64,000 bases of DNA, taken from positions 1 to 64,000 of the IMG/VR virus record IMGVR_UViG_3300005937_000008; one strand, given 5' to 3'. The notes beneath the pieces were generated by a model. It was not told where the DNA came from, made no database searches, and saw only the letters and a list, made by a program, of their open reading frames with translations. Positions 1 through 57,068 of this stretch are shown one piece after another. Position numbers and translations under genes: made by a program. Numbering within the stretch: position 1 is the stretch's first letter; every line of letters begins with the position of its first letter. The DNA is from a virus (taxonomy: Duplodnaviria > Caudoviricetes).

Positions 1-534
1 GCTGATGGTGTCCGGAGCCGCGTCCTTGATCGTCTTGTAGTCGACGACGATCGGGCCACGCAGCCAGTCCGGCCTCACGCGGCAGCGGACGCCGGTCACC
101 GGGTCGGTCCAGTAGATCGACCGTTCTGCGATGCCCGTGCCCGGTGTGAACAGTGGGCCGGCGATGGGGTGCTGGCGGATCGCCTCGGCCATCTCCAGGA
201 CCATGTCGTGGTCTTTGGTCAGGAGCGGCACCTTGCCTGCGGCGTAGGCCTCGTCGCGCTGGATCTGCGCGTCCTTCTTCCGCCAGTCCGGGAAGTCGAT
301 GACCTCCAACTCCGGGCCCTCCCCCAGTACGTGGAGGTGCGCGGCGTGCCCGAGGTCGAACTCCTTCTTCGGCGCCTGCGGGTGGTCGCGGTCGTACTTG
401 AACTGGGCGGGGCAGCCCGGGTTGAGCAGGGCCCGCAGGCCGGACGAGGAGATCGACGTGCGGTCCGCGTGGTACTCCTCGGCCGACAGATCGTCGCGCC
501 ACGTCGGCGCCTCCACCTCCACGGCGGCGGTCAC
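1..534 (-). CDS. RecE/exonuclease VIII-like PD-(D/E)XK nuclease (3' end outside window)
   Basis: Manual translation from GTG at 534: EEYHADRTSISSSGLRALL...FDLGHAAHLHVL...ERSIYWTDPVTGVRCRVRPDWL..IVVDYKT; GTGA overlap with upstream stop. Confidence 0.8.
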   Translation of the reverse strand, partial: MTAAVEVEAPTWRDDLSAEEYHADRTSISSSGLRALLNPGCPAQFKYDRDHPQAPKKEFDLGHAAHLHVLGEGPELEVIDFPDWRKKDAQIQRDEAYAAGKVPLLTKDHDMVLEMAEAIRQHPIAGPLFTPGTGIAERSIYWTDPVTGVRCRVRPDWLRGPIVVDYKTIKDAAPDTIS

Positions 535-9498: not shown

Positions 9499-9503
9499 AA
9501 GAT

Positions 9504-13478: not shown

Positions 13479-13494
13479 CCAAGAAGGTGAGAAG

Positions 13495-13713: not shown

Positions 13714-13722
13714 GATCCCAAC

Positions 13723-14739: not shown

Positions 14740-14791
14740 AACTCCAGCATGGCACAGGGCGGCGGCAGAAACTCACGGGCAGGAAGACGAG

Positions 14792-14830
14792 TTGGCGCCC
14801 ACCGCGACGGGGGGACGCGGTAGGCGCCAA
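14792..14830 (-). terminator. Stem-loop downstream of second recombinase
   Basis: TTGGCGCC(C/T)ACCGCG 15-bp inverted repeat, 9-nt loop, ~25 nt after stop. Confidence 0.6.
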
Positions 14831-14855
14831 GGGCAGTGTGGCATGGGGCGGGTGG

Positions 14856-16276: not shown

Positions 16277-16623
16277 ACGGCCCTCCTCGTCTTCGGCGAC
16301 CACGACCAACCCATCCGTGCACGGTGATTCTTTCCGCCGTGTCCGGCGGGCAGATTGCAGGGGCGCGGCGCGTACTGCGACGGCACGAGGTTGGGCGGCC
16401 CGCCGACGCTGCCGCATTCCTTCTCGCCGGGGGAGGCGAAGTCCCGGAACCAGTCCATGTGCAGGACTGCGCTGGAATCGTCTTTGTAGCACTCGTGAGC
16501 GGCGCAACCTCCGCACAGTTCGCACTCAGCGCACTCATCGAGGCGCCACGGATCGACCTTCCCGAGGCAAGGTGAATCAAGCACGGAGTCCCACATGCGC
16601 TGATCGTCAGCCACGGGCGTCAT
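16273..16623 (-). CDS. Cys-rich hypothetical protein (116 aa)
   Basis: CAECELCGGCAAHEC and C...CNLPAGHGGKNH. Confidence 0.5.
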   Translation of the reverse strand: MTPVADDQRMWDSVLDSPCLGKVDPWRLDECAECELCGGCAAHECYKDDSSAVLHMDWFRDFASPGEKECGSVGGPPNLVPSQYAPRPCNLPAGHGGKNHRARMGWSWSPKTRRAV

Positions 16624-16864
16624 GACCCGGACTGACGAGGCTAGCCACGGCCGCCGCAGCGCCTGTCACCCGCTCTGCATGGGTGGGCTGTGTGCCGTCC
16701 GAGGCGTAGTAGTTGAACCAGGGGCGGATGACGTCCGGCCCCTCGGTGCGGATCTTCTCGGCGAGCCCAGAAGCGTAGTCGTCGAGGACGGCGTTGGCCC
16801 GGGCGGTACTCAACCCGGCTTGGCAGAGGTGCACGATGAGGCGTGCGCGGGAGTCTGAGGCCAT
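16607..16864 (-). CDS. Hypothetical protein (85 aa)
   Basis: ORF track. Confidence 0.5.
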   Translation of the reverse strand: MASDSRARLIVHLCQAGLSTARANAVLDDYASGLAEKIRTEGPDVIRPWFNYYASDGTQPTHAERVTGAAAAVASLVSPGHDARG

Positions 16865-16912
16865 GTCTAATTGTACCGTTTTTTCGCCCGCGATATGGCA
16901 TGTTATCGAGCG

Positions 16913-17377
16913 TCAGGGGCGCCGCATGGCGCCCGGCGCGACGGCGGCGACCCGAGCGCGCTTCCGGTCACCAGGCCTGAACGTCCGCTCCACGAGACCG
17001 TGCCCAGCGTTGTAGGTGGCGGTCATGACGGCGTCGGTGTCGCACACGGATGGCAGGCTGTACAGCTCCCTGGCCACGTAGTCGAGCAGGTCGCTGCGTG
17101 CGGCCTGGCGGCCGATCCCGCGGGCCTCCTGCCAGGCTTCCCGGTCCACGGTGATGCGCCAGTCGCACCGGACCGCGGCTTGTCCTGGGGGCTGCGCTTC
17201 CGGTCGCGGGGTGATGCAGGTTGCGTAGGCGCCCGTCTCTTCGAATGGCGCCAGGTCATTGATCGCGAAGACTAGGTAGCTCGCCAAGTCGCCCTCGACG
17301 CGCGCGGGATCGATGCCGTTGTCGTCCGCGTAGGAATCGAGCGACACGGTCCAAAGCGTGCGCAGGATGGCAATCAT
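16913..17377 (-). CDS. Hypothetical protein (154 aa)
   Basis: ORF track; GGAG RBS. Confidence 0.55.
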   Translation of the reverse strand: MIAILRTLWTVSLDSYADDNGIDPARVEGDLASYLVFAINDLAPFEETGAYATCITPRPEAQPPGQAAVRCDWRITVDREAWQEARGIGRQAARSDLLDYVARELYSLPSVCDTDAVMTATYNAGHGLVERTFRPGDRKRARVAAVAPGAMRRP

Positions 17378-17444
17378 CAGGTCTCCAGTGTGCCGGTAGG
17401 CTGACAGGCGTGCGCCCCGGCTGCTTACCTCAGCCGGGGCACCA

Positions 17445-17654
17445 TCACTTCTGACTGTCGATCTCTTCGCACTTCCGGCAGGTAGGGTATTCGTTGAGGG
17501 CTACCCAGCTGTTCACGCGGCGCGGGAGCGGGATCCCGCAGAGGGCGACGTTCTCCGCCCTGTCCTTCCAAAGGCCGTCCGCCACGAAGTGCTTGGTGCG
17601 CCCGTAGCGGGTCAGCCCCATGGACGGGTCCCACCAGACGAGGTTCCGGGCCAT
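17445..17654 (-). CDS. Small zinc-finger-like protein (69 aa)
   Basis: KHFV...ALCG...PTCRKC. Confidence 0.55.
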   Translation of the reverse strand: MARNLVWWDPSMGLTRYGRTKHFVADGLWKDRAENVALCGIPLPRRVNSWVALNEYPTCRKCEEIDSQK

Positions 17655-17656
17655 GG

Positions 17657-17905
17657 TCAGACCTCGCTCTGAGCGGCAGTCTGCCTGTGTCGGTTGTACT
17701 CGTCGGCCTGCTGGGCGTTGCGTTCCAGGCCGTCAGCAAGATGTATGGCGAGTTCCGGGGTGATCTCGATGTAGATCACGCGGCCGTCTTCCTTCTCGGG
17801 GTCGATGATGCGGGCCTGGAGGTACACGGCCTTGCCGCCCCCCTTCGCCAGGCGGTGGCCCCATCCTGTGAGGCGCGCCGCCCAGGGCTGCTTGCGTCCG
17901 GCCAT
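17657..17905 (-). CDS. Hypothetical protein (82 aa)
   Basis: ORF track; TGATG coupling. Confidence 0.55.
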   Translation of the reverse strand: MAGRKQPWAARLTGWGHRLAKGGGKAVYLQARIIDPEKEDGRVIYIEITPELAIHLADGLERNAQQADEYNRHRQTAAQSEV

Positions 17906-18471
17906 CAGTTGCTCTCCTCGTTGAGTTTGGCGGCCCTGGCGTGGGCACGCTCGCGGCTACTCGGCCTGGTATCACGCCTGTAGCGGGCCGGTATGGCTGG
18001 CACTGTGGGGGTGGCGTAGCCGAGAGCGGCAAATACGTGCATGCCGGTGACGGTGTCGAGTACGGCGAAGTAGCCGGGGCCGAGCTGCTGAACCTCGTAG
18101 CGGGGCTTCGCGGGAGCCGTCTGGCTCGGCGCCTCAGGCTCCGGCGTGGGGTCCTGCCTCGGGGCGGGCGTGTGCTCGCCGCACCTCCAGCCGCCGTGCT
18201 CGTTCTTCTCCGGCAGCTCGTAGCCCTCGGGCAGGCCGGGCTCCCACGGCTTCTCGCCGGAGCCCTGGCAGATGTCGCCGTCCGGCTGCTGGGGCAGGCC
18301 GCCGGAGAGGGTGAAGTGGCCCATGTCGACGGACTCGCGATGCTTGCGCATGGTGCCGTCCTTGCGGAGCTTGCCCGCCCACTTGCAGCGAGGGCAGGTC
18401 GCGTAGCTGTCGTCGGCGGTGGCGTGGTCGGCCATGAGCGGTTCCGTCTTCTCGGTCTTGTTCTCGGTCAT
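17905..18471 (-). CDS. Hypothetical protein with CxxC motif (188 aa)
   Basis: TCPRCKWAGKLRKDGTMRKH...ICQGSG; first gene of divergent operon. Confidence 0.55.
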   Translation of the reverse strand: MTENKTEKTEPLMADHATADDSYATCPRCKWAGKLRKDGTMRKHRESVDMGHFTLSGGLPQQPDGDICQGSGEKPWEPGLPEGYELPEKNEHGGWRCGEHTPAPRQDPTPEPEAPSQTAPAKPRYEVQQLGPGYFAVLDTVTGMHVFAALGYATPTVPAIPARYRRDTRPSSRERAHARAAKLNEESN

Positions 18472-18502
18472 CACGCTCACTACTTCTCCCTGGTCGCCTC
18501 TT

Positions 18503-18584
18503 GTTTCTGTACCTACAGAATGCGCCCGCGGGGAGAGTCTTGTCAAGGCGTCGCGCGAGATGGATGCTAGTTTCTGTACCTACA
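18503..18584. promoter_or_regulatory. Divergent promoter with repeated operator
   Basis: GTTTCTGTACCTACA at 18503-18517 and 18570-18584 (first copy extends to palindrome TTCTGTA-CC-TACAGAA); minus-strand TTGACA at 18541-18546. Confidence 0.7.
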
Positions 18585-18603
18585 AATAGGAGGAGGTGGC
18601 CGA

Positions 18604-18822
18604 GTGGCCAGGCCGAAGACCGGCGAGACGCCCATCCGCAACGTCCGCGTACCCGACGGCGTCTGGAACGCCGTCAAAGCCAAGGCGAAAGCGGAGGGGC
18701 GAACCATCACCGATGTCGTCGTGACCGCGCTCCACCGGTATGCCGCCACCCCCGCCAAGATGGACGACGCGAGCAGCGAGCAGTCCGGGACATTGCAAAG
18801 CGCCCCGCTCCCCCACCGCTGA
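18604..18822 (+). CDS. Ribbon-helix-helix (Arc/CopG-like) regulator (72 aa)
   Basis: TPIRNVRVPDGVWNAVKAKAKAEGRTITDVVVTALHRY; AGGAGGAGG RBS. Confidence 0.75.
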   Translation: MARPKTGETPIRNVRVPDGVWNAVKAKAKAEGRTITDVVVTALHRYAATPAKMDDASSEQSGTLQSAPLPHR

Positions 18823-37367: not shown

Positions 37368-37697
37368 CTACTTGCTCTCCGGCTTCGCCGGGGCGCGCTT
37401 CGCCGCGGTCTTCTTCGCGGCGGCAGACTTCTCATCCACGTCCGCGGCACTCGGCTTCGTCGCCGCGCCGGCGGGTTCCGGCTTCGGCTCGACGGCGGCC
37501 TCCGGCGGGCGGGGCGCTGCCGTCGTCTCCGGAGCCGAGGCCTTCTTCGCCTCGTCGTCCGGCTTCACGACGTCGTAGTCGTAGTCGTCCTTGAGTGCAG
37601 TGGCGACCTGCTCGGCGTCCACCTTGCGCCCGGCCCGCACGTAGCCCTGGTACTCGTGGATCAGGGCGGCCTTCATGTCGGCCTTGATGTCCCTCAT
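37368..37697 (-). CDS. Hypothetical head-region protein (109 aa)
   Basis: ORF track; ATGA coupling. Confidence 0.6.
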   Translation of the reverse strand: MRDIKADMKAALIHEYQGYVRAGRKVDAEQVATALKDDYDYDVVKPDDEAKKASAPETTAAPRPPEAAVEPKPEPAGAATKPSAADVDEKSAAAKKTAAKRAPAKPESK

Positions 37698-38380
37698 AGC
37701 TCCCTCACCTGCTCAATTTCGGGCAGTTTGGCGTAGTAGTCCTCTTTGAGCCGCCGCCGCAGCGGCGAGCGCTGCCGGGTGCGGTGCTCCAGTCGCACAT
37801 CCCACAGGGCTTCGGCCGGCTCGGCATGATGCTTGATGTCGTTCCCGCACAGCACCCGTGTCCCGGAATCGCCGGGGGCCGTCACTACGTAGTGGGCCTG
37901 CTGCACTCCGATCCCCGGGAGGGCCCGGAACAACACCCGCAGCGGGAACTGGGAGTCGATGTCGTCGCGCTCCCACATCGTCACCTCGGCCACATCCAAC
38001 GCGGTCGCGGCCAACAGCGTGCGCGTGTCGGCAGGCACTTGGGTGAGTATCTCATCGGCATCGATCCGCAAGAACCAGTCGCCCGGCTCGGCAATCGTCG
38101 AGCCAAAGCGGAACATGAAGTCGCGCTTCTCCACCTCGTTGCCCCACCACGGCTGCCGCGGCGTGTGGATCGTGCACCCCATGCCAGCGCCGGCCGCGGT
38201 GTGGGCGATCGTCTCCGCCTGCTCGATCCCTGAGGCCGGCTTCCGCACGGCACCCGGGAACTGAGCGTAGGGACCGTCTACGGCGACCAGGTGGTCACAG
38301 AGTCTCGCCGCGGAGGCCACGCACTCGGCGAGCCACGAGGCGGGTTCCTCGTACCAGGACAGCAGGCCGATGATCTTCAC
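37694..38380 (-). CDS. GT-A fold glycosyltransferase (family 2-like, 228 aa)
   Basis: IIGLLSWYEE..WLAECVAS..LCDHLVAVDG; EVEKRD; WFLRIDADE (DxD). Confidence 0.75.
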   Translation of the reverse strand: MKIIGLLSWYEEPASWLAECVASAARLCDHLVAVDGPYAQFPGAVRKPASGIEQAETIAHTAAGAGMGCTIHTPRQPWWGNEVEKRDFMFRFGSTIAEPGDWFLRIDADEILTQVPADTRTLLAATALDVAEVTMWERDDIDSQFPLRVLFRALPGIGVQQAHYVVTAPGDSGTRVLCGNDIKHHAEPAEALWDVRLEHRTRQRSPLRRRLKEDYYAKLPEIEQVREL

Positions 38381-38877
38381 CCGTGCACCCCCAGCCAGCC
38401 GCCCCGCGGATTCTTCAGTGGCATTCCCGGCTGAACCGTGGCCCTGCATGCCTCACCGAGTGCGTGATGCACCGTCCACTCCTCGTGGCCGTTGCCGCAG
38501 TCATGCACCACGCACACCGAGCCCGGCTTGCCGACCTCGCCCCAGAGCTTGATCTCCCCGAAGCGGAACTCGATGTCGCTGTCCAGGATCACCAGGTCTG
38601 CCGCGGCCATCTGATCCGCCGACGGCGTGACGAGCTCCGGATGTGCCGGCGCCTGCCGCCATGCGGGATCCGACTCGAAACCCAGGAACTCGCACGCTGC
38701 CAGATCAAGGTGGTCTGTGATGCGGCCGATCCCGACGCCCGTCTCCAGGACCAGGGCCGGTCGCAGCATCCGCTGGAGCATGCCGACGAAGCGGCAGAAG
38801 TCCTGCTCCGGCGACCACTCGTCCCACGACAGCCAGCCGAGCTCGGCGTGCCGCGTGAACTGCTTCTCGTCCTGCAT
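38377..38877 (-). CDS. Class I SAM-dependent methyltransferase (166 aa)
   Basis: LRPALVLETGVGIG motif I; LGFESD; DLVILDS; GSVCVVHD. Confidence 0.7.
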   Translation of the reverse strand: MQDEKQFTRHAELGWLSWDEWSPEQDFCRFVGMLQRMLRPALVLETGVGIGRITDHLDLAACEFLGFESDPAWRQAPAHPELVTPSADQMAAADLVILDSDIEFRFGEIKLWGEVGKPGSVCVVHDCGNGHEEWTVHHALGEACRATVQPGMPLKNPRGGWLGVHG

Positions 38878-46058: not shown

Positions 46059-46712
46059 TTACGCGGCGGTGCGTGTGGCGAGGGGTAGGCCGAGGACTTC
46101 GGTGCGGTCGTATTGGTTGTCGCAGCCGCGGCATCGGGCGCCGGGTGTGGAGACGGTGACGCGGAGGATCGTGCCGCAGGGGCAGGCGACGGCGATGGGA
46201 CGTTCCTTGCGTTCGCCGGTGATCTGCCGGTCGCACTGCCGGACGAGGCTGGTGACCTCCGTGGCGAACTCTCCGAACGCCGGGTGCGAGCTCGCGGCCC
46301 ATTCGAGGTTGACGCGTAGCTGGTAGACGACGCCGTCGAGTTGCTGCTGTAGTCCGCCCTGCCAGCGGGGGTGCCGCCAGCCGAGGTACTCGTGCCAGTC
46401 GACGAGCCAGTCTTGGAGAACGGTGACGACTCCGCCGCGCGCCATGAGGCTGAGGGGTTCGAGGCGGAGCGGGAGCGGGGCGGTGCGCGAGGAGGACACC
46501 ATCACTCCGTCACCGCCGCGACCGGGAACAAGGCGTGTGGCCAACTGGGCGTACAGGCCGTCGGGTCCGGGGAGTTGACGGAGCGCGAGGTCGACGCGGT
46601 CCTGGCAGAGCCGGCATGCCACACGGCCGAGTTCGTCGTGCCGGAGCGGGCGATGACACGCGGCGCATGTCGGCCACACGTAGTCCTCGGCGGGCAGGGT
46701 GCGGTCGTTCAT
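46059..46712 (-). CDS. Multi-zinc-finger phage protein (217 aa)
   Basis: CAAC, CRLC, CPCG, CRGC; typical position upstream of late genes. Confidence 0.65.
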   Translation of the reverse strand: MNDRTLPAEDYVWPTCAACHRPLRHDELGRVACRLCQDRVDLALRQLPGPDGLYAQLATRLVPGRGGDGVMVSSSRTAPLPLRLEPLSLMARGGVVTVLQDWLVDWHEYLGWRHPRWQGGLQQQLDGVVYQLRVNLEWAASSHPAFGEFATEVTSLVRQCDRQITGERKERPIAVACPCGTILRVTVSTPGARCRGCDNQYDRTEVLGLPLATRTAA

Positions 46713-46866
46713 GGTGCGCTCCTTGGCGGCGGTACAGGGAACACGGTGCTGCTGCTGCCAATGGTGCACTAGTCCGTCGACAATCCGGGCCATTGGCCCA
46801 CCTGCCGCCTCCCGCGCATGCCGAAGGCCCCGCCGGGGTGGCGGGGCCTTCGCGTTGCCGCCCGGT

Positions 46867-47076
46867 TCAGGTGGCGGTCGCCTGGGTGCAGGTGTTGGCG
46901 TGGTCCTGTGCCCACTGGATGGCTTGGGCTGTGGCGGTGCCGGTGTCGGTGAGGCTGTCGGCGCCGGCGGTGTAACGGTGTCCGTGGGGGCATTGGGCGT
47001 CGGCGAGCAGGTGGACGGTGACGGCGGTGCAGGCGCCGTTGATCGTTGCGGTCGCGGTAGGGGTGGCGGTGGTCAT
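46867..47076 (-). CDS. Small His/Cys protein resembling AICE transfer-region proteins (69 aa)
   Basis: CPHGH...QWAQDHANTC. Confidence 0.45.
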   Translation of the reverse strand: MTTATPTATATINGACTAVTVHLLADAQCPHGHRYTAGADSLTDTGTATAQAIQWAQDHANTCTQATAT

Positions 47077-47090
47077 GGGTACTCCTTGGG

Positions 47091-47513
47091 CTAGGGCTTC
47101 TTCTTGCCGGGCTTACTGCCGACCTTGGCGTTGACCTTGGATGCGGCCCAGCCGACGGCGACGATGACGCCGACCAGGCAGGCGACGAGCATGGTCAGGT
47201 TCTGGCCGACGGCGCCGATGATCCCGATGAGGGTGCCGCCCATGAGGACGACGATCGCGCACGTGCAGGCGGTGACGGCGACCATCACGAGGACGACCAG
47301 GAACGTGATGATGATGAGGCGCTGCAGGGCAGGGTCGAGGCCCTGCGGCTGCGGCGCCTGCACGATGATCGGGGCCTGGCTGGGCTGCCCGATCACGACA
47401 TGATGCGGTCGGCCGTAGTCGTCGTAGACGACGTTCGGCGGCCGGTGGTGGGCGGGAATGACCGGCTGCTGCCCAAGCACGTCGGGCAGCTGCTCGGGCG
47501 GCAACTGGGTCAT
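47091..47513 (-). CDS. SpdD-like spread protein (140 aa)
   Basis: Pro/Gln-rich N-terminus, two long TM segments, basic tail: the architecture of Streptomyces SpdD-like proteins. Confidence 0.5.
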   Translation of the reverse strand: MTQLPPEQLPDVLGQQPVIPAHHRPPNVVYDDYGRPHHVVIGQPSQAPIIVQAPQPQGLDPALQRLIIITFLVVLVMVAVTACTCAIVVLMGGTLIGIIGAVGQNLTMLVACLVGVIVAVGWAASKVNAKVGSKPGKKKP

Positions 47514-47524
47514 GGCGGGTCTCC

Positions 47525-47794
47525 TTACGGCTTGCAGGTGGGGTAGGCGGCGCCGACTTGGCAGTGCAGATAGGTCGGCTTGGACACTTCGAACCGGTGG
47601 CTGGCACCTTGGGTGTCGCGGGTGGTGAGCCACAGGCGGGCCTTGCAGCGGCCTCCGGTGCAGTCCCACCGGTTGTTCTCGTGGGCGGTGACCATTCCCG
47701 ACGGGCCGACGGCTTCGGGGTTGCAGGTGCCTGCAGTGAGGGCGAGGACGGCGCCAACGGCCGCCAGCCCTACGCGGGCGCGCGTGATTCGCAT
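47525..47794 (-). CDS. Small secreted/lipoprotein-like Cys protein (89 aa)
   Basis: Signal-like MRITRARVGLAAVGAVLALTAGTC; further Cys pairs. Confidence 0.55.
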   Translation of the reverse strand: MRITRARVGLAAVGAVLALTAGTCNPEAVGPSGMVTAHENNRWDCTGGRCKARLWLTTRDTQGASHRFEVSKPTYLHCQVGAAYPTCKP

Positions 47795-47802
47795 CAGGGC
47801 TC

Positions 47803-48132
47803 CTATCGGAATTTACGGGCGGCGGCGTCGGAGCGGCGCACCTTGGCCTTGGCGTCGTTGCGGGCCTTGCGGGCGGCCTGCTTCTCGGGGCCGCGGGCGG
47901 TGCGCAGGGCAACCTCGGCGCGGGCGAGGTCGTCCTCGGCGGCATCGAGGTTGCCGAACGCGATGTGGGCCTGACGGTCGCGGCGTTCCTGCGCCTTGTC
48001 GTAGATGCGGTCGGCACGGTTGCCGTGGCCGCCGTCAGCGGACTCGTGGCCGTTCTTGACGACCTGACGGCCGCCCTTGATGGCGTGGCCGGCGATGCCG
48101 AAGACCTCGCCCCACGTGAACATGCCGGGCAT
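47803..48132 (-). CDS. Basic coiled-coil hypothetical protein (109 aa)
   Basis: ORF track; GGAAGGA RBS. Confidence 0.55.
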   Translation of the reverse strand: MPGMFTWGEVFGIAGHAIKGGRQVVKNGHESADGGHGNRADRIYDKAQERRDRQAHIAFGNLDAAEDDLARAEVALRTARGPEKQAARKARNDAKAKVRRSDAAARKFR

Positions 48133-48320
48133 GGTGGTTTTCCTTCCGGTTAGTGGACTGGTGTGGTTGTGCGGGGTGGTGCGGTCCTGCGTTTGAGGGG
48201 GTCTAGCGGGCCTCTGAGGGCCTGCCTCACCTCGTCACCAAATCGACATTCATGCAGGTCAGTGCAGGTGGGGTACGAATGGTGGGGCGGTCGGTGGAAA
48301 GTCACCGCCCCACCTGCGCC

Positions 48321-50468
48321 TCACCTTGCTTCAGCGGATTCCGTTTCGCGGTTGCCGAGGGCTCGTTGTACGCGCTGGAGGTGCACGACGGGGTAGCCCT
48401 GGTAGACGTTTGTGTCCTCGCCGTGGTCGGTGAGGAGGCGGCGTAGGCGGCTACCGTCCCAGTCGGTGTAGTATGCCGGGTTGAGGTTCTTCAGCCGGTG
48501 CAGGACCTCGGGTGTGCGGACTCGCTCCTGCCCGGACATGACCTGCTCGAGGTCGGCAAGCTCGTCGACGTCTGCGACGGCTTCCAGCTTGTGCAGGGTG
48601 GTGACCTGCCTGCGTAGAGCCTTGGCCCGGTCGGTGATGGCGATGGCTTCGTCGTCGTCGATGAAGTGCGTGCGGACGTTCTCCGACACCTGCCCCTTGG
48701 GCATGTCGATGCCGCTGCCTGCGACGACGAGCTGGCCCTTGTCGATGTCCTGCCGCAGCTTGTGCGGGGCGGCGCCGGCGACCACGGGAGCGTCACCGAG
48801 AGCCATCTTGGCCTGCGACTCGCTGCCTAGGACCAGGGAGGCGCGCAGGTGGTTGCCTTCGCGGGACCGCTTGGGCAGGTTCTGGTCGGTGGGGTCCTGC
48901 GTGCCTTCCCAGATGGTGACGTTGACGGCACGGCCCTGATCGTGGATCTTCTTGACGGCCTGGAAGTACCGTGACGTGGCCTTTTGCCCCCCGTAGGGAG
49001 CCCCGTACTTGACGTTCCCCTTGTCGTCGACGTACTCCTCCCGGGCGCCCGACCCGTAGGCGACCTGGGCTTCGTCGACGATGCAGACCAGCGGATCGAA
49101 CACGGTTCCCGCGGGAGCCAGCAAGCGCCGCTGCATCTCCTCGAAGACGTCCTCGACCATGTGCGTGACGTCCTTGACGTGGTCGTCGGTGGGGCCTTCG
49201 ATGAGGATCGTGGCCAGGCCGAGGAACATTCGCCAGTCGCCGATGCCCTTGAGGTCGCCGATGCGGAACTCGACGGTCGGGTCGAGCGAGAGCCACAGGG
49301 CGAGGGCGCGCAGGGCTGCGGTTTTGCCCTGGTTGGACAGGCCGGTGACCAGGATGTGCTTCTGGTAGAGGCTGACGAGGACGGCATCGCCGCGCAGGCT
49401 GAGGCCCCACGGGGCGCGGCCGCTCTTGTATCTGGCGGTCATCGTGGTGTCGGTGACCAGCGGCGATACAGGCACGGGCTCGTCGAGGGCGCCGGAGTCG
49501 GCGACCCAAAGGCGGACGGTGCGGGGCTGCGGGGCGACGCTGATGTACAGCTCGTGCTCGTGCCGGCCGAGGTTCTCGGCGAGCTTGCGCCGCTTGTTCT
49601 GGATCTCCAGGGTGTCGACGCCGGACGGCAGGTGGACGTCGAGTTCGACGCCGCAGCCTGCGATGGCGATGGGCGACAGCATGGAGGCGCCTGCGTCTTC
49701 CATGTCGATGATGGCCTTGCGCAGGGTGGAAATGCCCAGGTCGCGGAAGGCTTTGACGACGATCGACGGGGTGATGGGCTCGCCGTCGCCGCGCACGCTG
49801 GCGGGGAGCGCCCAGCGCGGGGCGGCCTGGCGTTTGCGGCCGGTGCTCCAGAGTGCGATCAGGCCGAGGGCGGGCCCGAGCATCTTGGCGGCGCCCCATA
49901 CGACGGCGCCGATGAAGAACGCCCAGTCGACCATCTCAAGGAACATGTGGAAGGGAACGAGCACGTCAGCGGCGTTCTCGTTGGCGACGGCGAGGGCGAT
50001 CCCGCCCATGGTGAGCGCGCCGAGGCCGGTGAGGGCGACCGCTCCTGCTGCGCGGGGCGCCTGGCGCATTGCGCCCAGCATGTCCATGCGCCGCTGGTGG
50101 CGGGCCTGCCGGAAGCGGTGGGCGCGCTCTTCCCACTCCTTGGCTTCTTCGGTGTTCCCGACGGCTTCGGCGGCGCGGATGTTGCGGCCGTAGCGGGCGG
50201 TGGTGCGCTCCTCCCAGATGCGCCGCCACGCGATGCGTGCCCCGCCTGCGGTGTAGGCGCCGTGGCGGACGATGATCCGGCATGCGGAGCGGGTGCGTTC
50301 GTCGGTGAGCGCGGCCCGCATCCGTTCGCGTGCACGGCGCCGCTCCGCCTGCTTCTTCGCGACCCGCTCCGGGAGAACCTCGAGGGACGCCTCGGGGGCG
50401 GGCGTCTTGACGAGTTTGAGGGGGCGCTCTTGGCAGTCGTCGAGGGTGCCAGGGATGTCGATAGTCAT
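48321..50468 (-). CDS. TraB-like FtsK/SpoIIIE DNA translocase (715 aa)
   Basis: N-terminal TM segments; Walker A GLSNQGKT; Walker B LVCIVDEAQ; GRA..V...TQDP; C-terminal wHTH-like domain. Confidence 0.85.
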   Translation of the reverse strand: MTIDIPGTLDDCQERPLKLVKTPAPEASLEVLPERVAKKQAERRRARERMRAALTDERTRSACRIIVRHGAYTAGGARIAWRRIWEERTTARYGRNIRAAEAVGNTEEAKEWEERAHRFRQARHQRRMDMLGAMRQAPRAAGAVALTGLGALTMGGIALAVANENAADVLVPFHMFLEMVDWAFFIGAVVWGAAKMLGPALGLIALWSTGRKRQAAPRWALPASVRGDGEPITPSIVVKAFRDLGISTLRKAIIDMEDAGASMLSPIAIAGCGVELDVHLPSGVDTLEIQNKRRKLAENLGRHEHELYISVAPQPRTVRLWVADSGALDEPVPVSPLVTDTTMTARYKSGRAPWGLSLRGDAVLVSLYQKHILVTGLSNQGKTAALRALALWLSLDPTVEFRIGDLKGIGDWRMFLGLATILIEGPTDDHVKDVTHMVEDVFEEMQRRLLAPAGTVFDPLVCIVDEAQVAYGSGAREEYVDDKGNVKYGAPYGGQKATSRYFQAVKKIHDQGRAVNVTIWEGTQDPTDQNLPKRSREGNHLRASLVLGSESQAKMALGDAPVVAGAAPHKLRQDIDKGQLVVAGSGIDMPKGQVSENVRTHFIDDDEAIAITDRAKALRRQVTTLHKLEAVADVDELADLEQVMSGQERVRTPEVLHRLKNLNPAYYTDWDGSRLRRLLTDHGEDTNVYQGYPVVHLQRVQRALGNRETESAEAR

Positions 50469-50471
50469 GGG

Positions 50472-51380
50472 TCAGCTTCCGGTGAGTGCAAGGACGTTGT
50501 CGGAGCCGAGGGCGGCCAGGTCGGGGCGCTCCCGCTCGATCTCGGCGCGCAGCTTCTGGGCGTGCTGGCGGGAGGTGTGCGGGTAGCCGGGCAGGGCAAG
50601 GAGGGCGGCGGTCATCTCGCCCTCGACGGGGCGCCTCTTCTTGCTGTCGTAGAGCGCCTCGATGGCCGCCTTCGCGTCGGCGCGGGAGGCGCTCCGGGGG
50701 CGCTTCGCTGCCGCCTTGCGGGGCGCCTTCTTCGACGCCTTGGGGGCGCTCTGGGGGCGCTCCGGCTTGACGGTTCGGGGCGCCTCGGGGGGCGCTCCGG
50801 GGGCGTCGCTCGGGGCGCTCTGGGGCGTCGTCTCGGGGCGCTCCAGGGCGGGTGCCGGGGGCGCCTCGGGGGCGGCAGTCGGAGCGTCGGCGGGGGCGCT
50901 CTGGAGCGTCTGGTTCGCCTCCACTCGGGGCGCCTCGGGGGCGGCCGGAATGCGGGCGGCGAGAGCGCCGTGCAGCTGCTGCATGAGGGCACCGAACGCA
51001 AGCAGGGCGGCGATCGGCGGGACCGCGGCAACGACGTAGTCCATGGGCTGGGCGTGCGATCCGACACCGGCCACGTTCAGGGCGATGGAGCCGCCGGAGC
51101 CGGCGACGGTGAGGCCGATGGCCCACGGGTCGACGGCCCGGCGCAGGCTCGCCCGCAGGATGAGGACTTCGCCGATGAGGATGAACAGGTCGACGGTTGC
51201 CGGCCACGCCCAGGAGCGGACGGCGGAGTGGCCGAGGCCGTAGCGGGAGGCCACGTCGTGCAGGTGCTCATATGACAGCCAGAAGGCGGCCATGGTGAGG
51301 ATGACGCTGGCGACGGCCGCGATGACGGCGAGCGTCGCGAGGACGTTCGGCTGTTCACGCGGCTCGGTCTGGGTGGTCAC
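50472..51380 (-). CDS. SpdB2-like (DUF2637-type) four-TM spread protein (302 aa)
   Basis: AFWLSYEHLHDVA..WAWPATVDLFI..SIALNVA..VPPIAALLAF; Pro/Ala linker; basic helical C-terminus. Confidence 0.7.
   Translation of the reverse strand: MTTQTEPREQPNVLATLAVIAAVASVILTMAAFWLSYEHLHDVASRYGLGHSAVRSWAWPATVDLFILIGEVLILRASLRRAVDPWAIGLTVAGSGGSIALNVAGVGSHAQPMDYVVAAVPPIAALLAFGALMQQLHGALAARIPAAPEAPRVEANQTLQSAPADAPTAAPEAPPAPALERPETTPQSAPSDAPGAPPEAPRTVKPERPQSAPKASKKAPRKAAAKRPRSASRADAKAAIEALYDSKKRRPVEGEMTAALLALPGYPHTSRQHAQKLRAEIERERPDLAALGSDNVLALTGS
50697..50944 (+). repeat. Strand-polar GGGGCGC(T/C) repeat cluster, clt/TRS candidate
   Basis: 11 exact GGGGCGC at 50697, 50720, 50743, 50754, 50777, 50789, 50812, 50835, 50858, 50893, 50927 in all three reading frames; further copy near 50421. 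Confidence 0.7.
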
Positions 51381-51586
51381 GCGAGCCTCCGGGTGAGGGC
51401 GAGCCACACGGCGGCGGCGAGTCCGATGAAGATCTGGACGGCGGTCTGGGCGAGGAGCAGGGCGGCACCGTGCACGGCGAGGAGTAGGGCTGCCAGGAGC
51501 AGTGAGCCGATCGCTGCGGCCAGGCCGGGGAAGTAGCCGGTGAGGATGAGGAGGGCCGCCAGGAGCGACCAGAGCAGCGCGCGCAT
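51377..51586 (-). CDS. Small hydrophobic Spd-like membrane protein (69 aa)
   Basis: Almost entirely hydrophobic; coupled to SpdB2-like gene. Confidence 0.6.
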   Translation of the reverse strand: MRALLWSLLAALLILTGYFPGLAAAIGSLLLAALLLAVHGAALLLAQTAVQIFIGLAAAVWLALTRRLA

Positions 51587-51612
51587 GGCGGGCTCCCTTC
51601 AGGTAGTGGCGG

Positions 51613-51825
51613 TCAGGCGTGGGCGCGGCGGTAGAAGACGATCTGCATCGGGATGAAGGTGGCGATCGCGGCGGCCAGGGCGGCGCCGGTGATAGCCGCG
51701 TTCGGCAGTCCGGCGGCCGTGCTGGCCCTGTCCGCGATGAACCCGGCGAGGATCGACGCGCCGATGATCAGCAGGGATTGGCGGTACGTGAACTTGTGGG
51801 ACATGAAGGCTCGGAACGTGCGCAT
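51613..51825 (-). CDS. Small two-TM protein (70 aa)
   Basis: MRTFRAFMSHKFTYRQSLLIIGASILAGF... Confidence 0.6.
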   Translation of the reverse strand: MRTFRAFMSHKFTYRQSLLIIGASILAGFIADRASTAAGLPNAAITGAALAAAIATFIPMQIVFYRRAHA

Positions 51826-51917
51826 GACGGCCTCTCTTCGGTGGTGCGGATGGGTGTGTGGTGCTGGCCAGGTCTCCTCACCGCCGGGGGTGCAGGGTCC
51901 GGCGGATCGGGGAACGG

Positions 51918-52076
51918 TCAGCGGACGATCATGTGTTCGGGGTGGCGGCCGCCCATGTGGGCCACGCACTCCGGGCAGTCCTCGCGCCAGCCGAGGTGGC
52001 GGTGCGCGGACCGGTCGTGCGCGTGCCGCCAGCACTGACGGCACTCGCCCCTCGGCGGGTTGTTGGGATCCGGCAT
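51918..52076 (-). CDS. pRL2-8-like zinc-binding plasmid protein (52 aa; missed by ORF track)
   Basis: Manual translation MPDPNNPPRGECRQCWRHAHDRSAHRHLGWREDCPECVAHMGGRHPEHMIVR; recognised from memory as the Streptomyces plasmid pRL2-8 family. Confidence 0.65.
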   Translation of the reverse strand: MPDPNNPPRGECRQCWRHAHDRSAHRHLGWREDCPECVAHMGGRHPEHMIVR

Positions 52077-52081
52077 CGCGG

Positions 52082-54050
52082 TCAGCCCTTCGACTTCCGG
52101 CCGTGCGCCTGGTCGAGGGCCTTGCCGGCTTCCTTGACCTGGCCGGACTTGATGCCGCCGTAGACCTTCTGGCTCTTCGCGACGGCGGCCGGGCTGGTCA
52201 GGTCGGTCTTCTTGTCAGACACGCGGTGTCCTCTCGGATCGGTGGTTGGTGTCGGTGCGTGCCCCGGGCTGCGGTTGAGGCGGCGGCCCAACTTCGGCCT
52301 AGCCGGGGCTGGTTGCCGTGGCGCGGGCGGGGGATGCCCGCACCCGGCGGTCTGGGGGTCAGGCGGCGACCGGGAGTCGCAGCCCGCGCAGCTCGTCGAC
52401 GAGCCGCGGACCCAGCTGGGTGACGTCGTCGACACCGGCGGCCTGGTCGAGGATCAGACGACGCGTCTCCTCGTCGGCGGCAATGAACTGGTCGATCAGA
52501 CGGGCACGGTCCTGGATAGACATGACGGATCACTGACTCTCTCTGGGTGCGCGGGGATGGTGGGGTGGTGCGGGTTGGGCACCGCGGCGGCGGGTGCCGT
52601 GGGGGTGCGGATTTCTCCGCCGCCGCGGCGGTCTATCGGGTGCGGCGGGCTTCGGCGTCGACCTCGGCCTTCAGCCGCCTGGCCGCAGCGACCGCTTCCG
52701 GGCCGCGCCTCTTCGAGCGGCGAAGGTGGTCGGCGGCAGCCAGCTGCTCCGGAGTGCGGCGGATCACTGCTGCTCACCGCCGTCATGCTCGTCGAACACG
52801 GCCAGGAGGTGCGTCACTGCGACTTCCAGCCGGCCGAGGGCACGGGCCGTCGCCTGGCCATCGCCCGCGTCCGTCTGCTCGGCGGCGGCCAGCGCCTCAC
52901 GGGCCTGACCGATGCGGTAGCGGTCGTGGCCGGTCAGCCGGAACGGGGCCCGGTCGCCGACCGGGTCCAGGTCGGCACGGATCACACCGTCCACGCCACC
53001 CCGCCGGAACACTGCCTGCAGCCGGATCGTCCCGTCACTACCGGCCAGCTCGGTGGGGGTGGCGCCCAGGTGTGCGGCCCACGCCTCAAACACCGTGCGC
53101 TCCGACGCGAGGCCGACCAGGCCGCCCGTATCCGTCAACCACCACGCGACCGTCGGCAGACCGTGGTTCTGCTGCGCCTGCAACAAACCACCCAGCTCCG
53201 AGTACGCCAGCCACTGCCGGAACTCCGGACTGTTCGACATCAGCGCACCTCCCCAGCCGGGACAACCACCAGGAACACGTCCTCGTCCAGCAGCATGACC
53301 ACCTCGGCCGGCACACCCTCCATACGGCGGGCGTGCGCGAACTCCTCCGCCGGCCAACTGCCACGCGGGGAACCGGCCGGGAACCGCTCGAGAACGGTGC
53401 GGGCGGTCACCAGTCCTCCCCCGGGATGCGGCCGTCGCGCAGGGCTTCGGCTTCCTCGCGGTACTCCTGGGCGTGCCGCAGGGCGATCGGGACGGTGGCC
53501 GCCGCCTGACGGCGCATGTTGTCGGACAGGGTGGGGTCGTTGGCGGCGGCCTTCGCGGACTCGGCGTTCCGGGCCGAACGGGCCGCGCACTTCTCGCGGT
53601 CGTCGGCCAGCTCGTTCATCTCGCGGCGGGACATGCCGGCCATCACCGACCACCGCCGACCACACGCCGCAGGTCGATGGCGGGCTGACCGAACAGCAGC
53701 GTCGCCCGGCCGGCCAGGCGCACGGTGCGGCCCATCCAGCCCTCAGCCTCAGCCAGGTCCTGCGCGTCAGCGATGATCAGAGCCTTGCCCGTGCCGTCCG
53801 CCGCGGTCATCGTCCCGTACAGGACGTCACCGACGACCGGCGACACGTAGTCGACCTTCACGTCGACGACGAACAGGTGCTCGCCGATCTCATCCGCCAG
53901 CCACACACCCGCGTCCGTGCGGACGTGGCCGTCCGCGTTCAGGTGCGACAAGTAGCGCTCGCGGGCCTCGGGGGTGAACTGGCCCCGAGGACGAGGGGTG
54001 GCCTGGTGATCGACACCCGCACGGGTGCCACTAAGCTCTTGGGTAGCCAC
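52082..54050 (-). other. Leading small ORFs of the transfer operon
   Basis: ORFs 52082-52222 (46 aa), 52359-52523 (54), 52633-52767 (44), 52764-53240 (158), 53240-53410 (56), 53407-53646 (79), 53643-54050 (135), mostly coupled. Confidence 0.6.
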
Positions 54051-54183
54051 AGGGTCTCCTAGATAGAACCTGGTGGTTAGGCCCTGGCCTGGGAGTGGAG
54101 TCCCGGAGCTGGGGCCGTCTTCGTTTGTGGGTGCAGCTGGTGGAGCAGCCGCTGAAGCTTCAGGCGGTGGAGCGCCCTCGGCT

Positions 54184-54262
54184 TCAACACCATCCTGAAG
54201 CTAGTCTGAGCCTGTGTCAACACCCTATTGAGAAGTGGCGCGTTGACTTCTACTCTGGCCTC
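54184..54262. promoter_or_regulatory. Divergent promoter pair controlling transfer operon and regulator/NUDIX operon
   Basis: Minus: TTGACA(54220-54215)-N17-CAGGAT; plus: TTGAGA(54228)-N17-TACTCT(54251), ATG 7 nt later (leaderless); TCAACACC repeated at 54184 and 54217. Confidence 0.65.
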
Positions 54263-54607
54263 ATGACAGATGCGTTCACGGAGTCCCTGGAGGCGAAAGT
54301 CGCCGAAGTTGCAGCCATCGATGACCTGCTTACGCAGGGCCGCGCCGCTCTTGAAGCCCGCCAGAAACTGGCGACGAGCGACCAGGCCCTCTATGTGATC
54401 CAGCAGGCAGCCGTACAAGGGCTGCGCCCAGGGCGCACGTGGGCCGAGGTCGGCGAACTGTTCGGGCGTAGCTATGCCTGGGCGGAAGCCATCGCCAAAG
54501 GGCGAAGTGCGAAACGGGGAAAGAGTGACCATGGCGCCGAGTCAACGCCTCGCGCGGGCGCGGCAGAAGGACACTCCCCCGACATGGAACCGCCAGAAGA
54601 CGAGTAG
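54263..54607 (+). CDS. HTH regulator, Kor-like position (114 aa)
   Basis: GRTWAEVGELFGRSYAWAEAIAKG; divergent from transfer operon. Confidence 0.6.
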   Translation: MTDAFTESLEAKVAEVAAIDDLLTQGRAALEARQKLATSDQALYVIQQAAVQGLRPGRTWAEVGELFGRSYAWAEAIAKGRSAKRGKSDHGAESTPRAGAAEGHSPDMEPPEDE

Positions 54608-54679
54608 CTAGACATCGCGGCGACACCACCCTGTCGCCGCCCCGCCAGACCCGAGCGCCACGAGCACGGGAGCCCGATA

Positions 54680-55318
54680 GTGGACGTCGTAGGGACGTGG
54701 ACAGGCGAAACCGCATGCCTCCTTCAGCAGGCCATGCGGATGACCAACGAGGAGTTCGCCGAACGACTCGGCCTGTCCGATCGGACCATCACCCGGTGGC
54801 ACGCATCACCCGAGATGAGCCACCGACCCGAAGTGCAACAGATCCTCGACACGGCATACGAACAGGCAGGTGAGGCGGTGCAACGACGGTTCGCGCTCTT
54901 GCTGCGCCCCGCTGAGCCGCGCATGGAAGCGCAGGCCCTGCGGGTAGCGATAGCCGTCGTGCTGCGAGATGACGATGTGCTGCTGGTCTGCAGGCGCGGG
55001 GACGGCGAGCTGCGCTGGCAATTCCCGGCCGGCATGGTCAAGCCGGGCGCCGACCCGGCGACGACAGCGGTGCAGGAAACCCACGGCGAGACCGGCGTGC
55101 ACTGCACCATCCGCGAGCACCTCGGCGAACGCATCCACCCGGTGACTGGGGTTATCGCTGAATACCACCTCTGCGATTTCCTGGCCGGCGATGCCACCAA
55201 CCGAGACCCGCTGGAGAACGTAGACGTGACCTGGGTTCCGCGCGCAGCCGTCACCCGCTTCATTCCGCAACACCAGATCTACCCGCCCATCCTGAGCGCC
55301 CTGGAGGTAGCTGCATGA
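54680..55318 (+). CDS. XRE-HTH fused to degenerate NUDIX domain (212 aa)
   Basis: MTNEEFAERLGLSDRTITRW; NUDIX box G-MVKPG-A-DPATTAV-QE-TH-GE-TGV lacks several acidic/Arg residues. Confidence 0.8.
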   Translation: MDVVGTWTGETACLLQQAMRMTNEEFAERLGLSDRTITRWHASPEMSHRPEVQQILDTAYEQAGEAVQRRFALLLRPAEPRMEAQALRVAIAVVLRDDDVLLVCRRGDGELRWQFPAGMVKPGADPATTAVQETHGETGVHCTIREHLGERIHPVTGVIAEYHLCDFLAGDATNRDPLENVDVTWVPRAAVTRFIPQHQIYPPILSALEVAA

Positions 55319-55725
55319 CCGAGACGACGACCGAGAAGCCGGGCATCTCCGCCGCGATCATCGTGAAGGATGGCGCTGTGCTCATGGTTCGGCGCCGCGT
55401 CGGCGAGGGCGAACTGCTCTGGCAGTTCCCTGCGGGCGCGATCGAGCCGGGTGAGGCGGCCACGGACGCGGCGGTGCGCGAGACCGACGAGGAGACCGGC
55501 CTGACGGTGAAGGCGCTGCGCCTGCTCGGCGAGCGCGTGCACCCGAAGACCGGCCGGCTCATGTCGTACACCGCCTGCGAGCCGGTATCCGGCGAGGCCC
55601 GCGTCGCGGACGACGACGAGTTGGACGCGATCGCCTGGGTCTCCCTCGCCGAAATCCCCGACTACGTCCCCTACGGCCTGTACGGGCCGGTGCAGGAGTA
55701 CCTCGACGAGGTGCTCAGCGCGTGA
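55315..55725 (+). CDS. NUDIX hydrolase (136 aa), Pif-like context
   Basis: Canonical G-AIEPG-E-AATDAAV-RE-TD-EE-TGL. Confidence 0.9.
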   Translation: MTETTTEKPGISAAIIVKDGAVLMVRRRVGEGELLWQFPAGAIEPGEAATDAAVRETDEETGLTVKALRLLGERVHPKTGRLMSYTACEPVSGEARVADDDELDAIAWVSLAEIPDYVPYGLYGPVQEYLDEVLSA

Positions 55726-56027
55726 GGGAACACATGTACCGGCCTGACGCCGGGCGTACCAGCCTGTACCGCATCTGCGACGGAAGCGGCCAGTTGCTGT
55801 ACGTCGGGATCGCCACCGACCCGGAGAGGCGCGTCAACGTGCACCGCTGGGATACGACCAAGAAGTGGCGCCGCGAGATCGCCGAGTTCCGTGCGGAGTG
55901 GTTCGACACGCGGTGCGAGGCAGAGAAGGCCGAAGTGTCCGCCATCCGGAGCGAGCGCCCGCTCCACAACCGGAGATACCACCCGGACTACGGCGACGCC
56001 CCGTGGAGTAGCAACACGGCGGCGTGA
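55722..56027 (+). CDS. GIY-YIG nuclease-domain protein (101 aa)
   Basis: SLYRI...LLYVGIATDPERR..H...AEKAEVSAI..ERPLHN. Confidence 0.75.
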   Translation: MREHMYRPDAGRTSLYRICDGSGQLLYVGIATDPERRVNVHRWDTTKKWRREIAEFRAEWFDTRCEAEKAEVSAIRSERPLHNRRYHPDYGDAPWSSNTAA

Positions 56028-56141
56028 CAGAACAGCGGCCGGGCCTCCCGTGTTCGAGCACGAGAGCCGGCCGCTGCAACAACCGGCGAGCGCGAACTCG
56101 CCGATCACGAAACCCACCCTTCGAAGAGATGAGGTTCACCT

Positions 56142-56444
56142 ATGACTCTAGCGCCTGAGACCTCTGCGGCGCCTGCGGCTTCCGTCACGCCGGATCGCAT
56201 CCTTGACGCCCCACTCAGCCAGCTGCTGACCGAGACGGGTGTCGAGCTCATCGACAGCTCCATCAGTGACCGGGAGTTCTTCGGGGCCGTTGTTCAGCGG
56301 AAGAATGGTGAGCTGCTGCTCACGATGCCGACCGGTCGTAGCGAGCTGGAGCACGACACCGTCGCCCGGTATCTCCTGGCCCAGGTCTTCGACGTCGAAC
56401 TCCCGCAACTGCCGCCGCCGTTCGTCACGACGACTGCGGCCTGA
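56142..56444 (+). CDS. Hypothetical protein (100 aa)
   Basis: ORF track; GAGG RBS; flanked by hairpins. Confidence 0.55.
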   Translation: MTLAPETSAAPAASVTPDRILDAPLSQLLTETGVELIDSSISDREFFGAVVQRKNGELLLTMPTGRSELEHDTVARYLLAQVFDVELPQLPPPFVTTTAA

Positions 56445-56543
56445 TTATCAGTCCCCGCTCGTAGAGTCGAAACGCCGGGCCTGCTCAGACGAAGTGAGCG
56501 GGCCCGGCGTGCACGATCATCCCATCTCACTGAAGGACACGCA

Positions 56544-57068
56544 TTGACTCGTCACCTGCAAGTCGTGCCCGAGTTCAAGGACACGCTCGATCGGCCGGCC
56601 TGGTGGTTCCAGGAGCAGTGGCTGTGGTTCCACACTGACTGGTCGAAGGTCCGCAAGCCGATGACCGAGGAAACCCTGAGGTGGGCCTACGCCCGCGAGG
56701 GCATCCCGTATCCGGACGACGTTCAGCCGGAGCCCGAGCCCTCCATTTCCGTCGACACTCCTCCCCCGCCGCCGAAGCGGAAGGCGGTCACCGCCGAGTC
56801 GCACACTTACCTGATCGAGGCGGAAGGCTCCCACCTGGTGAAGATCGGTATCGCCAGCGATCCGGTGCGTCGACTGCGGGAGCTTCAGACGGGTCAGCCG
56901 ATGGAGCTCCGCTTGCTGTGGTCTATCGCCGGGGACTACGAACACGACTTGCATGTCCACTTCGCCGCCCACCGTGTGCGCGGCGAGTGGTTCGATCTGA
57001 CATCTCTCGGTGATCCGGTAGACGTCGTGAAGGCGGCTGTCGGTGAGATCGAAGTATCGCGCGCGTAG
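56544..57068 (+). CDS. T5orf172/MUG113-type GIY-YIG domain protein (174 aa)
   Basis: YLIEAE..LVKIGIASDPVRRLRELQTG..EHDLH..F..HRVRGEWF. Confidence 0.75.
   Translation: MTRHLQVVPEFKDTLDRPAWWFQEQWLWFHTDWSKVRKPMTEETLRWAYAREGIPYPDDVQPEPEPSISVDTPPPPPKRKAVTAESHTYLIEAEGSHLVKIGIASDPVRRLRELQTGQPMELRLLWSIAGDYEHDLHVHFAAHRVRGEWFDLTSLGDPVDVVKAAVGEIEVSRA

Follow-up and report, generated by a model that had tools for sequence, protein, structure and literature searches.

A candidate Streptomyces-type DNA transfer module within the genome of a temperate tailed phage

The first 64,000 nucleotides of the 72,266-bp IMG/VR virus record IMGVR_UViG_3300005937_000008 (Duplodnaviria; Caudoviricetes; genes are cut at both record ends), hereafter the window, contain a block of genes that the original prediction had described as a complete-looking Streptomyces TraB conjugation module carried by a virion-forming phage. 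As delimited by our analysis, the block spans 46059-55725, between the phage early genes and the HNH/terminase genes. At its centre lie a gene for a TraB-like double-stranded DNA translocase (48321-50468, minus strand), a 102-bp array of short repeats beginning in the stop codon of this gene (48224-48325, minus strand) and resembling published clt loci, and, directly upstream of traB, a gene for a DUF2637 integral membrane protein (50472-51380, minus strand).

A TraB-like translocase and its clt-like array

The translocase (715 aa) was assigned by fold, motifs, and homology. Long N-terminal helices (residues 33-135) are followed by two hydrophobic helices (141-159 and 188-206) and a motor domain of the FtsK fold, in agreement with the membrane-anchored FtsK/SpoIIIE ATPase that had been predicted here. 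The Walker A (GLSNQGKT) and Walker B (IVDEAQ) motifs are unchanged across 28 homologues. The AlphaFold2 model of the protein matches the FtsK motors 2ius, 2iut, and 6t8o with E values of 9e-10 to 8e-9, and also the conjugation protein TcpA of pCW3; this likeness in the motor domain (Foldseek E ~1e-9, TM-score ~0.6 on the target) is one of fold, given that a PDB sequence search with the protein or its profile yielded no significant match to solved FtsK chains and only the fold search succeeded. The N-terminus also differs from that of FtsK/SpoIIIE, and the Pfam families FtsK_SpoIIIE and AAA_22 match weakly and below cut-off (21.8 bits against a cut-off of 24 for FtsK_SpoIIIE). For the C-terminal 86 aa (residues 630-715), the model has a pLDDT (predicted local distance difference test) score of 88 and the topology H-E-H-H-H-E-E-H. 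Nearly all of its closest structural matches are to winged-helix domains, though with middling scores (Z 5-6.3, Foldseek E >= 0.15), and we regard this domain as probably winged-helix-like. Sequence homologues come from AICEs (integrative and conjugative elements of actinomycetes): the window protein has 55-61% identity to the TraBs of 38 loci with a canonical AICE context, and 54% to that of the AICE-like 13.5-kb plasmid NZ_CP108827.1. This identity, together with the same array behind the stop codon, sets the ATPase apart from packaging and chromosomal FtsK proteins, the grouping that would have spoken against the original prediction.

Read on the coding strand, the array consists of GGTGAGGC, GGTGGGGC, and the palindrome GGTGACTTTCCACC, followed by inverted GCCCCACC/CCCCACC copies and a spacer with CTGACCTGC, and then by GGTGACGA and GGTGAGGC. 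Four of the 17 exact GGTGRGGC words in the window fall within these 102 bp (Poisson probability ~1.5e-5 after correction). This layout recurs downstream of traB in all 58 other homologous loci that were examined (18 + 40), as two to three direct words, a word-palindrome, two to three inverted words, a CTGAYCWGC spacer, and two direct words. Published clt loci are likewise composed of 7-9 bp direct and inverted repeats that are bound by the cognate Tra protein (PMC3583192, PMC4447253), and the experimentally defined clt of pWTY27 takes in the last 16 bp of traA (PMC3583192). The words of the window are lineage-specific and stand beside the gene, unlike the chromosome-wide KOPS/SRS motifs of FtsK/SpoIIIE.

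The sequence of the word differs between lineages, and within any one array all copies change together. GGTGAGG or GGTGGGG is found in the window and in the related loci L022, L024, L025, and L026; AGGTGAC in L023; CAGTGAC in the provirus G001 (G1) and in L027; and CAGGGAG or CGGGGAG in the provirus G002 (G2), in L005 and L011, and in the AICE loci. The word class tracks a stretch of the C-terminal domain of TraB, which reads ...GEDTxxYQ-GYP..., ...EExGxxD-GYP..., or ...GAxPYKSxGVM....

Taken together, the arrangement is close to that of the TraB-clt-Spd modules of AICEs and small plasmids, among which pSAM2, pSVH1, and pWTY27 have been studied and NZ_CP108827.1 is the closest of those sequenced. 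The two share the TraB family (54-61% identity), the domain order, the array layout from the stop codon of tra onwards, a DUF2637/SpdB gene immediately upstream, and a putative divergent regulator (GntR or helix-turn-helix, HTH) with NUDIX partners (PMC2440964, PMC3583192, PMC4447253). They differ in that the window has neither an AICE replication gene nor an integrase or excisionase beside the module, that the carrier is a 73.7-kb tailed-phage genome, that the clt word is GGTG(A/G)GG rather than C(A/G)GGGAG, and that the putative regulator is an HTH-pseudoNUDIX fusion rather than GntR.

Genes around traB

The DUF2637 protein (Pfam 4.4e-12) has three to four hydrophobic helices, against about four transmembrane helices in the oligomeric SpdB2, and occupies the position expected of SpdB2, in line with the SpdB2-like membrane protein of the original prediction. 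Its transmembrane part is 61-69% identical to DUF2637 genes adjoining FtsK-like genes on small (7-kb) Streptomyces plasmids, and homologues also adjoin FtsK-like genes on pRL2; identity to the copies in the AICEs or elements L006 and L012 is 66-71%. A second repeat array, within this gene (50525-50950), was considered as the main clt. It is made up of GCGCCCC words, is common only to the 83%-identical orthologue in L023, and was rejected because it is absent from L022, L024, L025, and L026, despite their same or nearly the same clt word. This array follows the variant of the DUF2637 gene rather than TraB, and is unlikely to be a clt for TraB. Thirteen same-strand copies of the GCGCCCC word (41 in the window) lie in a Pro/Ala-rich linker; they are often 23 nt apart, which is no multiple of three.

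Further upstream, the leftward operon continues with nine small open reading frames (ORFs) of 135, 78, 56, 158, 54, 46, 52, 70, and 69 aa (51377-54050, minus strand), defined by the gene calls of an ENA contig and by hydropathy. The latter marks two of them as membrane proteins (51613-51825 and 51377-51586), and homologues of the nine are scattered among related phage cassettes and the AICEs L008 and L013. Downstream of traB and the array follow genes for proteins of 109, 89, 140, 69, and 217 aa (46059-48132, minus strand). Of these, the 109-aa protein is kept in four related cassettes and the Cys-rich 217-aa protein (46059-46712) in nine phage relatives; traB, at 62-81% identity across its clade and free of stops, is the best-conserved gene of the region. 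The 140-aa transmembrane protein (47091-47513) completes the set of small membrane proteins that had been noticed before. A "pRL2-8-like" protein had also been predicted in the block, and the 140-aa protein is indeed 44% identical to an ORF of the pRL2 transfer operon; the number "8" could not be confirmed. The matching ORF lies directly upstream of the DUF2637 gene of pRL2, and a divergent GntR gene stands at the head of their operon.

On the plus strand, a divergent operon (54263-55725) encodes a 114-aa ORF, an HTH-NUDIX fusion (54680-55318), and a canonical NUDIX protein (55315-55725). The predicted HTH regulator and NUDIX pair are thus both present, but the HTH, rather than being a gene of its own, is part of the first NUDIX protein, in which the Nudix box is degenerate, with key residues lost. 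In the second NUDIX protein the box (GAIEPGEAATDAAVRETDEETG) is canonical, and identity to the NUDIX genes of the AICEs L009 and L010 is 33-37%. Both window genes recur at 80-85% identity in L022 and L024, while in L023, L025, and L026 the divergent slot is occupied by GntR-UTRA (Kor/KorSA-type) genes instead. Because GntR-UTRA takes the place of the HTH-pseudoNUDIX/NUDIX genes in these three loci, the exchange suggests a role in regulating the operon for genes of either kind. Behind the NUDIX pair, the window carries GIY-YIG and T5orf172 nuclease-like genes (region 54680-57068); in relatives, the slot holds GntR-UTRA and UTRA-only genes. The divergent intergenic region (54051-54262) contains the direct repeats TCAACACCATCCTGA / TCAACACCCTATTGA (54184-54231) and is a candidate operator.

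A circular phage genome and its relatives

An independent ENA metagenome contig, k141_368622 (73,814 bp), has the same gene content as the record and clarifies the structure of the element. Its first 355 bases correspond to window positions 355..1 (98% identity) and its bases 1795-18820 to record positions 72266..55241 (100% identity), such that 1,439 bases of the contig (~1.44 kb) bridge both record ends. These bases complete the truncated gene for a PD-(D/E)XK exonuclease and contain one further gene, for a protein of 292 aa (L029 1-1794), and, judged from coordinates, the contig's own ends overlap by ~109 bases. Since the contig bridges the record ends and its own ends overlap, the element is one circular or circularly permuted phage genome of ~73.7 kb without host flanks. 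Simple circularity of the record itself (G000) was rejected: its ends share no overlap, and reading of the end gene does not continue across the junction.

Nearly all genes are on the minus strand. At high coordinates, the early/replication genes encode Dam and C5 methylases, WhiB, an HTH_36 initiator, and DnaB, the last two being the carrier's replication genes; WhiB and PhdYeFM antitoxin genes were observed in the early region beyond the window. A small plus-strand island with the HTH-NUDIX, NUDIX, GIY-YIG, and T5orf172 genes follows. Directly downstream of the block, the late region (20465-45080, minus strand; PHROG and Pfam matches) encodes HNH, TerL, portal, S78 protease, major capsid protein, connectors, major tail protein, chaperone, a 1562-aa tape measure, tail proteins, and endolysin. 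The head, tail, and lysis set described originally is accordingly present and uninterrupted from TerL through endolysin. Together with an integrase, these genes make up the set of a temperate tailed phage of the HK97-fold siphovirus type (matches of 1e-21 to 1e-88), known from its genes. In the head operon, the major capsid gene is followed immediately by a glycosyltransferase gene (phrog_7009, 1e-85) and an adjacent gene for 166 aa (37694-38877).

After the late genes, at low coordinates, come an integrase gene next to a complete tRNA-Met and the genes for DpdA, a second integrase (plus strand), an antirepressor, and a beta clamp. The integrase beside the tRNA-Met (14856-15875; region 14664-15875) is the shorter one, with 339 aa and a weak Pfam match. 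No copy of the tRNA-Met end was found elsewhere in the genome, and because there is no second copy, the tRNA is apparently encoded by the phage or else belongs to attP. Within the plus-strand island at 7073-10853, in a stretch where the GC content falls to 0.64-0.65, lies the gene for a tyrosine integrase of 430 aa (8206-9498) with 38-39% identity to AICE integrases; it could be the main integrase of the phage or belong to a small second integrative element inside it. DpdA, a DNA transglycosylase (11837-12721; PF23859, 3.9e-65), was observed as well, and no 7-deazaguanine synthesis genes turned up among the genes scanned. Likewise, ParA/ParB, which together with RepA and an SCP2-type tra locus mark plasmid-phages of the pZL12 type, were not seen among the genes scanned, a scan that covered part of the ORFs.

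As stated in the original prediction, no integrase, excisionase, or replication gene bounds the block: the two integrases lie 31-40 kb away, and no AICE-type Rep (RepSA, RepAM, Prim-Pol) was found near it. Neither a copy of the tRNA-Met region nor a long direct repeat flanks the block, and no integrase remnant does, which speaks against an inserted AICE. AICEs are compact (~9-25 kb), combine Int/Xis with Rep and Tra, and are flanked by att sites, an organization that the carrier of the block does not have.

A survey of related prophages, proposed earlier as a check, returned the same cassette in at least 10 other prophages or viral contigs, giving at least 11 phage or prophage loci in all. The carriers include two IMG/VR proviruses (G001 and the 38-kb G002, which is rated complete), two metagenome contigs (L022 and L023), and chromosomal prophages of sequenced Streptomyces (L005, L011, L024, L025, L026, and L027). 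In most of them, traB lies a few kb upstream of HNH, TerS, and TerL; in the others it is beside phage virion or lysis genes. Their virion modules vary widely and comprise HK97/S78, SPP1-portal (L027), and Gp80 (L022 and L023) types. TerL of the window is 30-34% identical to that of G001 or G002, and only L024 resembles the window overall (TerL 80%, TraB 78%, NUDIX 80%). Because the cassette and the phage-borne TraB clade span such differing head and tail modules, their distribution points to a long period over which selection has retained them in phages.

In a maximum-likelihood tree, the window TraB falls into a clade of seven phage-borne TraBs (starred; support 97/98), or eight on a weaker branch (81/100), while the AICE clades and three further phage-borne TraBs fall into an unresolved comb. 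The phage rows of this tree were drawn from the best matches to the window and constitute a biased sample. An even sample of 201 Streptomyces species genomes across the genus was also searched (homologue threshold E <= 1e-80). Fifty-one of these genomes have a TraB homologue, all at 55-61% identity; the number includes G137, whose sequence was left out of the analysis, and 40 loci were examined. Thirty-eight of the 40 are canonical AICEs with a divergent GntR gene, DUF2637/SpdB, TraB, RepAM and Prim-Pol or a large Rep, and an integrase 4-6 kb downstream. The remaining two (L045 and L032) have neither the usual AICE Rep-Int tail nor phage markers, and may represent a third kind of carrier. No TerL, portal, or capsid gene was detected in the 40 loci, either by BLAST or by profiles that detect positive controls. 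Among the closest database homologues (62-81% identity), all six contexts sampled are phage. Given that 38 of 40 evenly sampled loci are canonical AICEs, the family is, by homology and gene context, a genuine AICE Tra family, with the window in a rarer, phage-dwelling sub-lineage. TraB homologues number more than 2,600 in all.

Possible roles of the module in phage spread

With moderate confidence, we propose that the block is a working Streptomyces-type module for double-stranded DNA transfer which is part of a temperate siphophage and gives it two routes of spread. The module was most likely captured by the phage lineage from AICEs. A temperate phage would have taken up the part of an AICE that serves transfer, namely its regulator, its membrane proteins of the Spd type, TraB, and clt, and kept its own replication, integration, and virion genes. 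The HTH-pseudoNUDIX protein would repress the leftward operon, and the active NUDIX might behave like Pif. Upon derepression, the C-terminal winged helix of TraB would bind the GGTG(A/G)GG words just behind traB on the circular genome, and the membrane-anchored hexameric motor would pump the double-stranded circle into an adjacent hypha or across septal cross-walls. The DUF2637/SpdB2-like pore protein and the small transmembrane proteins would aid spreading within the mycelium. The element could then move both by virions and by contact-dependent DNA transfer. TraB and clt are, on published grounds, sufficient for transfer.

The idea is less novel than the original prediction implied, as it was preceded by work on pZL12 and by Thoma et al., 2015. 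The combination of phage and conjugation has a published precedent in the plasmid-phage pZL12/phiZL12 (Zhong et al., 2010, J Bacteriol 192:3747), for which, so far as the accounts in PMC3583192 and PMC4487206 extend, a conjugal transfer locus is on record; in pZL12, and by prediction in the window, virion genes share one replicon with a conjugal transfer locus that includes a major tra gene. [quoted passage not shown] Our literature search turned up no description of TraB-clt cassettes of the AICE type in prophages that bear an integrase.

Several points weigh against the proposed transfer module. The element and its relatives are known from sequence alone, and the sequence itself comes from a metagenome virus record. 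Pfam and NCBIfam place no family on the TraB-like protein above cut-off, and the call as TraB is drawn from a predicted fold and from homology to unstudied AICE TraBs rather than from direct comparison with pSVH1 or pSAM2. Similarly, position and family are what equate the DUF2637 protein with SpdB2, and no GntR Kor repressor is present in the window. The match between word class and C-terminal residues follows the phylogeny with no independent covariation, and is to be read as supportive. Finally, a TraB homologue was not found by tblastn in 50,697 deposited phage genomes, even at E <= 5, nor did megablast of the block match any of these records, among which the presence of phiZL12 was not confirmed. 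Since none is found among the deposited phage genomes, no isolated plaque-forming phage is known to carry this TraB.

A more modest role would be confined to a single mycelium. TraB and clt might pump replicating or prophage circles across septa, with no transfer between mycelia, and so enlarge the infected zone before lysis or, in a manner similar to FtsK/SpoIIIE, deliver the genome into spore compartments. The placement of the cassette, on the same strand and between early and late genes, fits such a role, as it could be expressed in the lytic programme, and intramycelial spreading of plasmids needs both TraB and Spd proteins (PMC4447253). SpdB2 homologues of the actinophages phiC31 and VWB have already been proposed to help phage DNA spread (Thoma et al., 2015; PMC4447253). 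The window element is like these two phages, and like Dubu, OnionKnight, and phiSASD1, in that a putative spreading membrane protein of plasmid type is encoded by a temperate phage whose host is, for the window presumably, Streptomyces; the transmembrane domain of its DUF2637 protein is 65-75% identical to the genes of the latter three isolated phages, which have DUF2637 without TraB. None of the five matched the window TraB, and unlike in the window, no FtsK-like gene is annotated near the DUF2637 gene of Dubu. The neighbouring gp36 of Dubu, the sole neighbour compared, was considered as a hidden Tra and rejected, having no BLAST similarity to TraB. However, the plasmid TraB/clt pair mediates transfer between mycelia as well (PMC4447253), and the cassette retains a Pif-like NUDIX or Kor-like GntR partner, which is typical of donor/recipient control in AICEs (PMC2440964). 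We consider a restriction to one mycelium unlikely, though it deserves to be kept in mind.

It is less likely still, and in our view improbable, that the module is a passenger acquired from an AICE by illegitimate recombination, neutral or selfish and possibly decaying, that opens no second route of spread. Phage genomes are mosaic, the small ORFs around traB vary much between relatives, and the lack of an isolated phage with this TraB would be in keeping with such a history. The standing of traB as the best-conserved gene of the region, its lack of stops, the invariant catalytic motifs of TraB, the cis array that co-evolves as a unit, and the occurrence of the cassette in phages with unrelated virion modules, among which it has moved or persisted, all argue against it.

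The notion that the block is an independent AICE within or beside an unrelated prophage is largely refuted and retains very little credence: the AICE-like tyrosine integrase in the same genome (8206-9498) would speak for it, but lies ~37 kb from the nearest block edge with the whole virion module between, no RepSA, RepAM, or Prim-Pol gene or att repeat is near, the closed circular genome contains no host DNA, and early or late phage genes directly adjoin the cassette in at least 10 further loci.

A bolder form of the transfer-module proposal can be put forward tentatively, at somewhat less than even confidence. A distinct, old TraB sub-lineage may have turned phage-specific, shifted its clt word from CAGGGAG to GGTGAGG, AGGTGAC, or CAGTGAC, and passed between temperate Streptomyces phages that are unrelated in morphology. 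Such phages would then be truly conjugative viruses that spread within mycelia and from one to another as double-stranded circles without lysis and use virions for long-range dispersal only. If so, this lifestyle could explain why no plaque-isolated phage in a public collection has this TraB.

Close relatives in sequenced, cultured Streptomyces strains, together with a predicted cis site of ~100 bp and a predicted reader domain of 86 residues, make these predictions testable. Among the relatives are Streptomyces sp. NPDC007251 (GCA_040634055.1; contig JBEYET010000002.1, ~204-226 kb), whose TraB is 78-81% and whose TerL is 80% identical to that of the window, Streptomyces sp. CB01201 (GCA_002803085.1), and the strain of CP026652.1. 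A virus that also moves by conjugation would blur the line between phages and conjugative elements. If prophages are transferred by hyphal contact, lysogeny in populations of soil Streptomyces could spread with no need for receptors, lysis, or free particles, and strains resistant to phage could acquire phage-borne genes. Pocks and plaques could then be two faces of one element.

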